A stretch of 64,000 nt of DNA, taken from the sequence record MK962753.1. The stretch is one strand, 5' to 3'. The notes beneath the pieces were generated by a model. That model was not told where the DNA came from and ran no database searches. It worked only from the letters and a program-made list of their open reading frames with translations. Position 1 is the stretch's first letter. Each line of letters starts with the position of its first letter. The DNA is from Shigella phage JK32. Shown here in pieces: positions 16,932-20,353 of this stretch. The translations under genes and the position numbers were made by a program.

Positions 16932-17144
16932 TTATAATGCACCATCAAGCAATTGCTCTAAGGTGTATCCTGAATAGTCTTTTTCAATCAGGATATATTT
17001 TCCTACTCGTTTAATCCAACCGCGCATTTCAACGTATTCTGCGTAGTTGATGGTACGAGTTGTTCCATCTTCCAGTAATGCAGTACCGATTTCGTTGATG
17101 CGGTCATAAGTTACGTCGGTAATGATGATTTCGATGTTAGCCAT
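16932..17144 (-). CDS. hypothetical small protein (70 aa)
   Basis: ORF with SD AAGGAG; own early promoter upstream. Confidence 0.6.
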   Translation of the reverse strand: MANIEIIITDVTYDRINEIGTALLEDGTTRTINYAEYVEMRGWIKRVGKYILIEKDYSGYTLEQLLDGAL

Positions 17145-17180: not shown

Positions 17181-17209
17181 ATTATAGGGGATCGATGATC
17201 CCCTGTCAA
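17181..17209 (-). promoter_or_regulatory. early promoter with palindromic spacer
   Basis: TTGACA, spacer GGGGATCATCGATCCCC (17 nt, perfect palindrome), TATAAT. Confidence 0.7.
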
Positions 17210-17216
17210 CAACTTT

Positions 17217-17735
17217 TTAGTTATTTTTTAATTGCTCATCTTGCAATAAAGCAATCACATGCTGGCGATGTTCTTCCGATTGAGGCACACCGAAAAAGTT
17301 TGTTTTGTAGAAATACTCTAATCGGTCTTCTCGTGTGCTCTCTTCCATCATGATCGCGGGTAGTCCGAGATTTCGGAAACGTCGCTTTTCTGCTGGCGTA
17401 AAATCGCTGTAATACAGCATAGAATCATCATTACCAGCAATGCTAAACTCATCCTTCATGAAGGAGAATATTGCGTTTAAACGCTGTTTACCGTCCACTA
17501 TTTCGATTTCATAGCGAGAGCCATCATCAATCTTAGCCATTGCGATAGCACCAACCGGAAAATCATTAATCAGGTTTTCGATAAACATACGTTTGTTTTC
17601 TGTGTCCCATACTAAAGGACGCTGATAATCTGGGTTCATGTTGATATAGCCATCTTCTAACCATGCATCATAAACAGAGATGACAAAGTTTTTAGTATTG
17701 GTATAGTAACGGCGTTTAGGCGTTAAACGGTTCAT
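17217..17735 (-). CDS. DUF262 / ParB-like nuclease-NTPase domain protein
   Basis: NPDYQRPLVWD ... IVDGKQRL motifs (DGQQR-type); ATG at 17735 with SD AGGAGA; last gene of a four-gene operon. Confidence 0.7.
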   Translation of the reverse strand: MNRLTPKRRYYTNTKNFVISVYDAWLEDGYINMNPDYQRPLVWDTENKRMFIENLINDFPVGAIAMAKIDDGSRYEIEIVDGKQRLNAIFSFMKDEFSIAGNDDSMLYYSDFTPAEKRRFRNLGLPAIMMEESTREDRLEYFYKTNFFGVPQSEEHRQHVIALLQDEQLKNN

Positions 17736-17736
17736 G

Positions 17737-18069
17737 TTATAGTCTCCTGAATGGATCATCACGTAAATCAATATCTTTTAAGAACTCATCCCATGAATGG
17801 CGGATATTGTTCTTAATTCTCCAGATAAGCGCAGGGATTGAACGCTCTCCCATCTGGAAGTAAGGATCATATGATCCGTATGCCCAATATGCTACTACAA
17901 TTCCACAATCAGCGCAATAGTATTCTATTTCACTTGCTGGCGACCAAAGTCCATCAATATGATCGGTGATCTTGCTTTCGATGTTATGGCTATGGCAATC
18001 AGGGCAACGGATGCAATGACCTTGTTTATCGTAATTTGACGTTAGCGAATACTTAAACAATCTCATCAT
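17737..18069 (-). CDS. small Cys/His-rich putative zinc-binding protein
   Basis: 110 aa with CxxC-x2-H and CxxC motifs; start overlaps stop of upstream gene. Confidence 0.6.
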   Translation of the reverse strand: MMRLFKYSLTSNYDKQGHCIRCPDCHSHNIESKITDHIDGLWSPASEIEYYCADCGIVVAYWAYGSYDPYFQMGERSIPALIWRIKNNIRHSWDEFLKDIDLRDDPFRRL

Positions 18070-18782
18070 AGATCCTTATTGGCTTCAAATACTGCCTTTG
18101 CGAATCCTCGCGGGGTAAGTGACCTGATAGTCTTTGTTCTGGTTCCTTTTCCGCCTAGCTTAGAATGCTGTTTGCTGTACCCTTTATTAATCGGCAACGG
18201 TTTCTTTTCTGGCATTATAAAGCCTTGTCCGGTCCATAAGCAAGTCTTTTTCGGGTACATATCACGGGAGGCAATATACTCAGGAAACGTAGGATGTATA
18301 TCATCTTCCGGCAAATAACCGCCATATTCCCACGGATGGAACATGTAATCAGGCTTACGCCACATACTAGAGATAACGCTTACAGGATTCTCTATCATGT
18401 AGGGAACTCCTAGCCATTCACCCAAATAAGCGGTTATTTTAGCTGCCCGTACATCATGAACTTGAATCAATGGTCCTTGCTCTCGTTTCTTTCGTTCAAA
18501 GTGTGCAGCGCCACTAACAGCTAAATTGGTGCACGGTGGGAATGCAAATATAATATCCGGTTTCCCCCATTCAAGGTCCATTGCTCTTTCCAGCCAGTTC
18601 AAATCAATCCATGTGTTTACATAGGTAATGTTTGGATGTTCAAATCGGGTATTATACTTTTTGTATGTGCCGTGGTCGCCATCGTCAGCATTAAAGCAGA
18701 TCACCTTATGACCTGCTTTAGCCCATTCTAGCCCCATTATCCCCGATCCGTCAAAGTTGCAGAATATTAATTTTTGTTTCAC
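18066..18782 (-). CDS. truncated C5-cytosine methyltransferase-like protein (SAM-dependent MTase core, no obvious target-recognition domain)
   Basis: 238 aa; motif I-like FDGSG, motif IV-like FPPCTNLAVSG, motif VI-like ENP in canonical order; GTG start overlapping upstream stop (GTGA). Confidence 0.55.
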   Translation of the reverse strand: MKQKLIFCNFDGSGIMGLEWAKAGHKVICFNADDGDHGTYKKYNTRFEHPNITYVNTWIDLNWLERAMDLEWGKPDIIFAFPPCTNLAVSGAAHFERKKREQGPLIQVHDVRAAKITAYLGEWLGVPYMIENPVSVISSMWRKPDYMFHPWEYGGYLPEDDIHPTFPEYIASRDMYPKKTCLWTGQGFIMPEKKPLPINKGYSKQHSKLGGKGTRTKTIRSLTPRGFAKAVFEANKDL

Positions 18783-19030
18783 GCTGCCCCCATTGGTTTG
18801 ATAGTAACAGAATCTAAAAGACCTTTGTTAGCCAGTTCGCGGCAAGTTTTCAGATCCGTAACTTCCCAGCCAGCCGCAATCAGGTTATCGATGAGGATGT
18901 TAGCAACTTCCTCGCTCATGAAAGAGCACTGTTTGCCGATGGTGTAGCGTACACGCTGTAATTTCAGTTTACGGAAGCCTTTAACGTTCAGGTCTTTAGC
19001 GATTTTCTTTGCGGTTTCGATGTTAGCCAT
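18779..19030 (-). CDS. hypothetical small protein (83 aa), first gene of operon
   Basis: SD GGAGAA; early promoter directly upstream. Confidence 0.6.
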   Translation of the reverse strand: MANIETAKKIAKDLNVKGFRKLKLQRVRYTIGKQCSFMSEEVANILIDNLIAAGWEVTDLKTCRELANKGLLDSVTIKPMGAA

Positions 19031-19070
19031 TGTTTGATTCTCCTAAGTAGTATCTCGTCTTGATGTGTGT

Positions 19071-19098
19071 AGTATAGGGGATCTCCCGATCCCCGTCA
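19071..19098 (-). promoter_or_regulatory. early promoter with palindromic spacer
   Basis: TTGACG, spacer GGGGATCGGGAGATCCCC-type palindrome, TATACT. Confidence 0.65.
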
Positions 19099-19396: not shown

Positions 19397-19429
19397 TTTT
19401 GACTCTCCAGTTCGTTTCGGTATGGGTGT

Positions 19430-19458
19430 ATTATGCTATGTTCTTACTTTGGTGTCAA
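19430..19458 (-). promoter_or_regulatory. early promoter
   Basis: TTGACA, 17 nt, CATAAT; inverted repeat flanks -10; conserved ACACCCATCGAAACGA downstream. Confidence 0.65.
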
Positions 19459-19466
19459 CAACTTTT

Positions 19467-19736
19467 TTAGATATTTTCAGAAATAAATTTTAAAACTTGA
19501 CGTAAATGCTTCTCATCTTTGATAGTCGCCGGAAGTTCTTCTTTTACTTCCTGTGCAAGATAGATATTGCCGTTCCAAGTGAAAGATCCGTCTTCGTTTA
19601 CGCGATAGCTGAACATCCATTCGCAATCATTTTCGATTTCATATACACACAGAAGGGTGTAATCTTCAAAGCTATTGATTTCAAGGTCGAGGCCGTGACG
19701 TTTTGCAAAGTTGGTAGTGGTTTTAGTCAATGCCAT
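19467..19736 (-). CDS. hypothetical small protein (89 aa)
   Basis: ORF with SD AGGAGAA. Confidence 0.6.
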   Translation of the reverse strand: MALTKTTTNFAKRHGLDLEINSFEDYTLLCVYEIENDCEWMFSYRVNEDGSFTWNGNIYLAQEVKEELPATIKDEKHLRQVLKFISENI

Positions 19737-19776
19737 TGTTTGATTCTCCTAAGTAGTATCTCGTTTCGATGGGTGT

Positions 19777-19805
19777 ATTATGATATAGGCGTGATCTGGT
19801 GTCAA
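19777..19805 (-). promoter_or_regulatory. early promoter
   Basis: TTGACA, 17 nt, CATAAT. Confidence 0.65.
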
Positions 19806-19828
19806 CAACTTTTTTAAAATTTAGGCAA

Positions 19829-19852
19829 TAAAAAGCCGACACTAAGGTCGGC
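19829..19852 (-). terminator. rho-independent terminator
   Basis: GCCGACCTTAGTGTCGGC hairpin plus U-run on minus strand. Confidence 0.65.
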
Positions 19853-19857
19853 ACATT

Positions 19858-20112
19858 TTAAAAATTCTTGCTATATATGCAAGCCTCATAATCTAGAGGA
19901 TGACCGCCAATCCTACCAGGCTTAATATTCCAACCGCATCGATATTTGCTGACCATGCTAACCGTTTCGGTTCTTAGAGCATTTCTTTGCAAATCATACC
20001 CCCTAAATTCTTGTCTATAAGGACAGTCCGCTTTGCAAGTTGGCGGTTCTACGTCATTTAGCGGGTCAGAAGCAGTTGGCTTTATTATCAATTCTTTGTT
20101 TGCAATAATCAT
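19858..20112 (-). CDS. hypothetical Cys-rich ORF overlapping 3' end of upstream gene
   Basis: Open frame between 59-aa gene and terminator; start uncertain (ATG at 20112 or 20142); no clear SD. Confidence 0.35.
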   Translation of the reverse strand: MIIANKELIIKPTASDPLNDVEPPTCKADCPYRQEFRGYDLQRNALRTETVSMVSKYRCGWNIKPGRIGGHPLDYEACIYSKNF

Positions 20113-20245
20113 AAGCACATCCCATTGAAGGCAATTTAACATCTTCGCAATAAGTGTTGAATCCGTCAAATACAATCACTTCGTATTTGACTCCATCGGC
20201 GATAGCTTTTACTTTATACCATCCATGCTTGTATAAAATCTTCAT
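20066..20245 (-). CDS. hypothetical small Cys-rich protein (59 aa)
   Basis: ATG at 20245 with SD GAGGGAAAT; track start is TTG. Confidence 0.5.
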   Translation of the reverse strand: MKILYKHGWYKVKAIADGVKYEVIVFDGFNTYCEDVKLPSMGCAYDYCKQRIDNKANCF

Positions 20246-20276
20246 CTTTATTTCCCTCAATCTCGTTTCGATGGGT

Positions 20277-20305
20277 GTATTATGCTATACACAGGATCTA
20301 GTGTC
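20277..20305 (-). promoter_or_regulatory. early promoter
   Basis: TTGACA, 17 nt, CATAAT. Confidence 0.65.
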
Positions 20306-20329
20306 AACAACTTTTTAAAATTTTATGCA

Positions 20330-20353
20330 ATAAAAAAGCCGACACTAAGGTCG
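20330..20353 (-). terminator. rho-independent terminator
   Basis: Same hairpin as 19829..19852 followed by U6 on minus. Confidence 0.65.

Follow-up and report, generated by a model that had tools for sequence, protein, structure and literature searches.

What brings a short cytosine methyltransferase gene, a zinc-ribbon gene and a gene for a nuclease-less DUF262 protein together in one early operon of a T4-type phage, and do their products work together? The question is raised by Shigella phage JK32 (sequence record MK962753.1), from which a stretch of 64,000 nucleotides, here called the window, was analysed. Between positions 17217 and 19098 four genes lie behind one promoter, and all features of this operon are on the minus strand. 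In the original prediction they formed a DNA-modification or anti-restriction module that included a truncated methyltransferase. We consider it probable that the region is one early transcription unit, bounded by promoters of the promoter early stem-loop (PeSL) type and situated in the hyperplastic region of a Krischvirus, and that it consists of four independently acquired, translationally coupled accessory genes, including an autonomous C5 methyltransferase and a minimal DUF262 protein.

The transcription unit and the distribution of its genes

The four overlapping or abutting genes, the promoter and the protein motifs were all found as originally described. An open reading frame (ORF) of 83 amino acids (aa; 19030-18779) is followed by the gene of the 238-aa Dcm-like methyltransferase (18782-18066), which starts with GTG and overlaps the upstream stop in the sequence GTGA. 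The gene of the 110-aa zinc-ribbon protein (18069-17737) is joined to it by an ATGA overlap and is separated from the gene of the 172-aa DUF262 protein (17735-17217) by a TAA-C-ATG junction. A mechanical ORF list extends the last frame to a TTG at 17771; the annotation of relatives gives a 519-bp coding sequence, which corresponds to the ATG at 17735. The gene overlaps probably couple translation. A 2.5-kb stretch matches 56 Krischvirus genomes at 96-98% identity (RB49, phi1, JSE, GEC-3S, Brandy and others), and the operon itself, 97-100% identical in the 56 deposited genomes, is already annotated there. The source of the window is a Krischvirus, that is, an RB49-like T4-type phage, and the operon lies in its variable (hyperplastic) region, where it adjoins an alt-like ADP-ribosyltransferase gene. 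Because the locus belongs to the variable region of Krischvirus, the operon is absent from T4 proper, as had been suspected.

Co-occurrence of the genes was scored by tblastn and profile hidden Markov models (HMMs) in IMG/VR loci that were anchored on each gene and extended 10 kb to either side. Outside Krischvirus, 0 of 53 DUF262 loci hold a methyltransferase or zinc-ribbon relative within this distance, and 0 of 78 methyltransferase loci hold a DUF262 or zinc-ribbon relative. The three recognisable genes also differ in their phyletic distribution, which together with these counts argues against the proposed module. Among GenBank phage records, the methyltransferase was found in 1519 (including T1-like, Dhillonvirus, rV5-like, Phapecoctavirus and Webervirus phages), the DUF262 gene in 305 and the zinc-ribbon gene in 92; each search gave exactly 56 records at or above 90% identity (95% for the DUF262 and zinc-ribbon genes), equal to the 56 genomes that match over the whole region. 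In Queuovirinae, the zinc-ribbon gene occurs without the methyltransferase or the DUF262 gene, and the recurrent neighbours of the methyltransferase elsewhere are helicase/nuclease genes or small ORFans. No universal conserved neighbour of the methyltransferase or of the DUF262 gene was found in the loci, where neighbour clusters mirror genus-level synteny only.

Gene content has also changed within the operon. In five-gene relatives, the ATG of the methyltransferase overlaps the stop of an 81-aa ORF, the GTG of which in turn overlaps the stop of the 83-aa gene; this 246-bp ORF is annotated in GEC-3S, SAP and TB34, and most relatives keep it. Overlapping BLAST pieces and a comparison of the junction sequences with GEC-3S revealed that, in the window, the start of the 81-aa ORF is fused to the start of the methyltransferase over a microhomology of approximately 16 bp (GTGAAA.AAAAATTAAT; 18766-18781), with exactly 246 bp lost. 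The identical junction is present in JSE, UPWr_E1, G2248, E26 and pEJ01, and Brandy, Whisky and other listed records align in two pieces approximately 240 bp apart at this point. The GTG start overlapping the upstream stop, to which attention had been drawn, is thus present but is no special feature: the methyltransferase starts with GTG because the deletion removed the 81-aa ORF, and the codon is the scar of this microhomology deletion rather than a regulatory feature.

If the four genes nevertheless formed a co-evolved module, the methyltransferase, which is poor in target-recognition sequence, would depend on the zinc-ribbon and ParB-DUF262 proteins to load it onto DNA or direct it to its target, in the manner of ParB-methyltransferase fusions or of DpdA-DpdB, or the DUF262 protein would shield DNA newly carrying 5-methylcytosine (5mC) from type IV enzymes. 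ParB-like domains are often fused to DNA methyltransferases. The overlapping or abutting arrangement under one promoter and the joint retention of all genes in the 56 Krischvirus genomes fit such a module, and DUF262 domains do sense modified DNA in GmrSD/BrxU/SspE (PMC12065111). However, we regard it as very unlikely, given the lack of partners in the loci outside Krischvirus, the Queuovirinae zinc-ribbon genes that occur by themselves and the coming and going of the 81-aa ORF, which is typical of accreted cassettes. In addition, a homologous enzyme, the Dcm of phage K42, methylates DNA when expressed alone in Escherichia coli (bioRxiv 10.1101/2023.08.16.553469), and a need of the window methyltransferase for a partner is not supported when a homologue is active by itself. 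Because of the missing co-occurrence, the separate distributions and the independent activity of the K42 enzyme, we read the linkage of the genes as lineage-specific accretion, as is known for PeSL regions.

The promoter of the operon, located by a consensus scan at 19099-19071 (TTGACG-17-TATACT), carries the complete set of PeSL elements: the -35 box TTGACG (19099-19094), the -10 box TATACT (19076-19071), an A-rich tract on the 5' side, a GGGG..CCCC stem-loop, a Shine-Dalgarno sequence and a start codon. The stem-loop is the hairpin GGGGATC-GGGA-GATCCCC in the spacer (19094-19077; -14.5 kcal/mol, z = -2.7), and the annotation of GEC-3S has a promoter at the same place. The next PeSL, a nearly identical element at 17209-17181 (TTGACA-17-TATAAT, 12/12 consensus positions) with a GGGGATC..GATCCCC hairpin (z = -3.4), closes the cassette on its 3' side and serves as promoter for the gene that comes next, which encodes 70 aa. 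Inside the operon, the scan gave a best promoter-like site at 18754-18725 (10/12), three more at 9/12, and one weak terminator-like match at 18345-18323; over the whole region, 14 promoter-like matches stand against 12.5 +/- 3.3 expected, which is chance level. The original view that the operon has a single promoter and neither promoter nor terminator inside it is therefore reasonable, because the internal matches are weak and occur at chance frequency, but scanning cannot prove it.

In RB49 and phi1, in which they were tested, PeSLs act early as strong promoters of the sigma70 type, carry an attenuating stem-loop and flank mobile ORFan cassettes in hyperplastic regions (Arbiol et al. 2010, PMC2839356). 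The arrangement in the window resembles these cassettes in its sigma70-like promoter, its A/T-rich upstream tract and the gain and loss of cassettes among close relatives. In contrast to them, its PeSL serves four genes rather than one ORFan, and its internal indel arose through microhomology in coding sequence, not through recombination between PeSLs. By analogy with the RB49 and phi1 promoters (PMC2839356), we infer that the four genes are transcribed early after infection, by the RNA polymerase of the host and starting at the PeSL. GEC-3S, SAP, TB34 and most other listed relatives have one more cassette of a PeSL and an ORF on either side of the operon, and the window lacks both. More PeSLs repeat every 350-500 bp just upstream: a run of PeSL-type promoters at 19400-20340 on the minus strand, belonging to a 77-nucleotide repeat family, has TTGACA-17-CATAAT at 19458, 19805 and 20307, each ahead of a small ORF, and two of them carry GCCGAC...GTCGGC terminator hairpins (at 19852 and 20356).

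A short Dcm-like methyltransferase of full length

The 238-aa protein has the full length of its family, the phage 'Dcm-like' C5-methyltransferases, which is very large and has members of 200-260 aa. It had been described as truncated, but it is not, because its homologues are abundant and uniformly short: almost all of the 7328 homologues obtained at 90% clustering, and of the 1173 clusters formed at 50% identity, have 200-260 aa, and the alignment to the profile phrog_757 ('DNA methyltransferase') runs from end to end (E = 1.2e-90; residues 1-237 against positions 12-220 of the 247 in the profile). A pseudogene was rejected given this uniform length and the invariance of the catalytic residues. 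The segments FDGSG, FPPCTNLAVSG and ENP, which were recognized at the outset as C5-methyltransferase motifs, are present and invariant or nearly so in 32 homologues: F10, G12, S13 and G14 of motif I (F10-D-G12-S13-G14), P82-P83-C84-T85 of motif IV and E131-N132-P133 of motif VI are all invariant. So is K178, which forms a pair with K179, and in the C-terminal segment RSLTPRGFA the residues R220-S-L222 and R225-G226 are invariant, with T223 and P224 conserved in at least 90%. Motif I aligns to that of M.HaeIII and M.HhaI, and motif IV to GFPCQ of M.HhaI; an hhalign comparison of the family with M.HhaI aligned only motifs I-IV (E = 0.01), a weak match that serves for motif mapping only. At the place of the usual target-recognition domain, only approximately 35 residues (about 187-218, with a lower predicted local distance difference test score, pLDDT) lie between YPKKTCLWTG and RSLTPRG, and there is no sizeable domain of this kind (motifs VIII-IX). 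The protein is indeed too short to hold one, as had been remarked, but the short recognition region is common to the whole phrog_757-type family and does not signify truncation.

By profile, the enzyme belongs to a divergent subfamily of PF00145-type enzymes: it scores 13.5 bits against a gathering cutoff of 22, whereas 18 of the 32 family members match PF00145 at E <= 0.1 (best, 1.3e-6). No NCBIfam family was found for it, nor for the DUF262 protein or the 83-aa protein. A search of the PDB with the single sequence gave no match and one with the family profile only motif I of M.HaeIII, at E = 1; because these sequence searches found no relative, folds were compared. The AlphaFold (AF2) model is confident (pLDDT 89), and its best Foldseek matches are the catalytic domains of DNMT3B and DNMT3A (E = 1e-8). 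The protein is thus predicted to have the fold of a C5-methyltransferase catalytic domain, within the S-adenosylmethionine (SAM)-dependent methyltransferases as first supposed. It shares with M.HhaI, M.HaeIII and DNMT3A/3B (PF00145) a Rossmann-type fold, the motif order I (FxGxG), IV (PC) and VI (EN.), and an R.LTPRE-like C-terminal segment. It differs from M.HhaI in being approximately 90 residues shorter, and from the canonical enzymes in its short recognition region, its PF00145 score below the cutoff and its lack of a PDB relative by sequence.

Activity can be judged from a homologue. The window enzyme is 55% identical over its full length to the Dcm of phage KarlJaspers (E = 1e-90; 238 versus 236 aa). 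In K42, which is close to KarlJaspers, mutants that escape retron Ec86 map to a 711-bp Dcm-like gene, the product of which triggers this retron, expression of this Dcm raises 5mC on multicopy single-stranded DNA (msDNA) as measured by liquid chromatography-mass spectrometry, and the quadruple mutant C82A/E128A/K175A/K176A is inactive (bioRxiv 10.1101/2023.08.16.553469). The corresponding residues of the KarlJaspers enzyme (C82, E128, K175 and K176) align to C84, E131, K178 and K179 of the window enzyme, which has therefore kept the mutated Cys, Glu and Lys-Lys; the enzymes are of the same family and length, and for both of them a resemblance to the catalytic domain of DNMT3A is predicted. Differences also exist. 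KarlJaspers and K42 are siphoviruses (Drexlerviridae, Hanrivervirus) with helicase genes as neighbours of dcm and no zinc-ribbon or DUF262 gene there, and 5mC activity was measured for the K42 enzyme and is predicted for the Krischvirus enzyme.

Homology to an active family member makes it most likely that the JK32 protein methylates DNA, and points to its target. It would act as an autonomous, compact Dcm-like C5-cytosine methyltransferase that uses SAM; Cys84 would attack C6 of a flipped-out cytosine, Glu131 would protonate N3, and the region of approximately 35 residues would replace the usual target-recognition domain. In the DNA of the phage, and as a side effect in that of the host, a short motif would then be methylated at C5 of a cytosine. 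The likely benefit is that phage DNA is shielded from methylation-sensitive restriction; a possible cost is that sensors, retron Ec86 among them, may recognize the 5mC.

A quite different role has to be weighed for two other Krischvirus phages. The DNA of SAP reportedly has fully modified cytosines, in the form of glucosyl-hydroxymethyl-cytosine, with no known pathway genes, whereas that of TB34, which is 99.96% identical, is unmodified (PMC13390438). The methyltransferase-like protein might start a DNA-level hypermodification of cytosine, for example by transferring a group other than methyl, and so account for the full modification of SAP without known pathway genes. However, the coding sequences of all five operon genes are identical in the modified SAP and the unmodified TB34, and the operon therefore does not explain the difference. 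Relative to TB34 (OX001802; locus L008, position 1497), SAP (OZ034687; locus L007, approximately 1497-1576) has the PeSL behind the DUF262 gene, which corresponds to the window PeSL at 17181-17209, duplicated in tandem over 80 bp; the two also differ by four single-base indels outside the operon genes, three of them in T runs. As these are the only differences found in this locus, the operon was rejected as the cause. Furthermore, the K42 homologue yields 5mC, and members of the family are frequent among T1-like, Dhillonvirus, rV5-like and Webervirus phages, of which, to our knowledge, no hypermodified example has been reported. We therefore consider a hypermodifying role extremely improbable, and continue to regard the protein as a compact C5-methyltransferase.

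The DUF262 protein and the small proteins

The 172-aa protein consists of a ParB-DUF262 domain, minimal but complete and with no effector, in accordance with its first description as DUF262/ParB-like and free of a DUF1524 nuclease. It matches PF03235 (GmrSD_N) with 72.9 bits against a cutoff of 33.2, and its motifs I (Q38-R39-x3-W43), II (D81-G82-K83-Q84-R85) and III (F142-x3-N146), which follow the definitions QRxxxW, DGxQR and FxxxN (PMC12065111), are all invariant among relatives, as are YQRPLVW, DGKQRL and the segment GVPQSEEH after motif III. Its model has a ParB/Srx fold, with pNOB8 ParB-N, BrxU, PadC and SspE as nearest neighbours. Pfam gives no DUF1524 match in the protein, which ends at residue 172 and has neither the DNA-binding middle domain nor the DUF1524/HNH nuclease; no nuclease ORF follows the gene, as the PeSL and the 70-aa ORF come next. 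A word-indexed homologue search recovered no more than 7 relatives for the DUF262 protein and 1 for the zinc-ribbon protein; tblastn on phage genomes and pattern scans of IMG/VR were used in its place. Slopekvirus, Pseudotevenvirus and P22-like phages encode relatives of 165-195 aa with 35-39% identity, and the genes next to these are unrelated. About a dozen distant relatives of the short protein have 250-311 aa (IMG/VR loci L042-L054), and one of these distant relatives, P0127 (282 aa), has an extra N-terminal domain ahead of the DUF262 core.

Such a domain, which most likely binds nucleoside triphosphate (NTP), would correspond to the sensor module of GmrSD/BrxU, SspE, NsnA and PD-T4-2 without the effector, and may act alone or with host partners. 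The window protein has the fold and the three motifs of GmrSD/BrxU and SspE; unlike them, it has 172 rather than about 560-600 aa, lacks the middle DNA-binding domain and DUF1524/HNH, and is encoded by a phage and presumably expressed early. The best-scoring defence-system profiles for it are Menshen NsnA (71.5 bits, E = 1.9e-20) and PD-T4-2_A (43.6 bits, E = 4.9e-12), but the match covers only the DUF262 part of these profiles (positions 48-188 of 385), and no NsnB- or NsnC-like neighbours are present. A further parallel, by description only, is GmrS1 of the GmrS1/GmrSD2 doublet of E. coli ECOR17, which is likewise a nuclease-less DUF262 protein and works with another DUF262 protein (PMC12373910), but it is a host defence component encoded beside its nuclease partner.

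Our preferred guess for its function, offered tentatively, is interference with host DUF262-based immunity, which gains some plausibility because GmrS1 functions in trans with GmrSD2 (PMC12373910). The protein could be an anti-defence decoy that heteromerizes with host DUF262-sensor proteins (GmrSD/BrxU, SspE, NsnA or PD-T4-2), or competes for their ligand, and so blocks their activation, independently of the methyltransferase. Early expression from a strong PeSL, a complete NTP-binding domain without an effector, a family confined to phage accessory regions in varied contexts and the closeness to the NsnA and PD-T4-2_A profiles would all suit a decoy, and the physical and functional partnership of GmrS1 with GmrSD2 makes pairing in trans conceivable (PMC12373910). 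However, neither experimental nor genomic evidence points to a target, and the strict conservation of the NTP-binding motifs, together with the segment GVPQSEEH, suggests that the protein acts as an enzyme or a clamp rather than as a passive mimic. Moreover, the carriers (RB49/TB34, RB43-like and P22-like phages) have what we take to be ordinary or lightly modified DNA, for which an anti-type-IV role is not obviously needed. A decoy is thus possible but on balance doubtful. With somewhat greater reserve still, the stand-alone proteins of 165-195 aa in Krischvirus, Slopekvirus, Pseudotevenvirus and P22-like phages, which have the invariant motifs QRxxxW, DGKQR, FxxxN and GVPQSEEH in common, might be a widespread uncharacterized class of phage counter-defence proteins that neutralize DUF262-sensor immunity (GmrSD/BrxU, SspE, Menshen and PD-T4-2) by subunit poisoning or by competition for a nucleotide or DNA signal.

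The 110-aa protein is a CxxC...CxxC zinc ribbon (phrog_2993). Its relatives outside Krischvirus are 40-44% identical (phage 9g gp22, 44%, and proteins of other siphoviruses) and lie among replication/repair genes. The nearest are those of Queuovirinae (9g gp22 is annotated as a ZPR1 zinc finger) and of Proteus and Klebsiella siphoviruses; the 9g gene (locus L006, 3950-4270) sits among primase, RusA, dUTPase and ligase genes. A hidden zinc-ribbon gene beside DUF262 in other T4-like phages was considered and rejected, as the upstream ORFs of approximately 107-109 aa in KP27 and Margaery are unrelated and have no Cys motif. The 83-aa protein is an ORFan restricted to the Krischvirus lineage (phrog_14908), without a Pfam family; its one weak PADLOC match, to the C-terminal region of the UG35 defence reverse transcriptase (positions 722-785 of 938; E = 3.8e-5, 20 bits), may reflect a shared small domain or chance. 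The 70-aa protein just downstream (16932-17144, minus strand) has 42-50% identical homologues in six T1-like IMG/VR loci (L117, L120, L123, L124, L139 and L143), approximately 3 kb downstream of the dcm-like gene, and looks like another accessory gene common to T1-like phages and Krischvirus.

Opposing points and significance for Krischvirus phages

Several points weigh against our account of an accreted unit with an autonomous methyltransferase and a minimal DUF262 protein. No modified base was detected when the related TB34 was analysed by high-performance liquid chromatography with mass spectrometry (PMC13390438); 5mC at a few hundred specific sites would probably have escaped notice there, or have coincided with the marks of the host Dcm. 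For the K42 Dcm, specificity for CCWGG was assumed from the host Dcm and from mutagenesis of msDNA rather than mapped (bioRxiv 10.1101/2023.08.16.553469). The sample used for co-occurrence is phylogenetically redundant, with many T1-like and Dhillonvirus contigs, and covers only the 10 kb to either side. The AF2 model of the DUF262 protein was built from a shallow alignment of 8 sequences, and only 1 of 5 models was confident. Lastly, tight translational coupling and perfect co-conservation within Krischvirus would also fit a cooperation that arose only in this lineage.

On our preferred reading of four separately acquired genes, the short methyltransferase is not a degenerate enzyme and does not depend on its neighbours; its family, one of the most widespread among phage methylases, is now supported by experiment. 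Two predictions follow for Krischvirus phages that serve in therapy and in screens of defence systems: 5mC directed by the phage, and sensitivity to sensors of the retron Ec86 type. The minimal DUF262 family, which is conserved, free of an effector and probably expressed early, would be a reasonable candidate for anti-defence screening.

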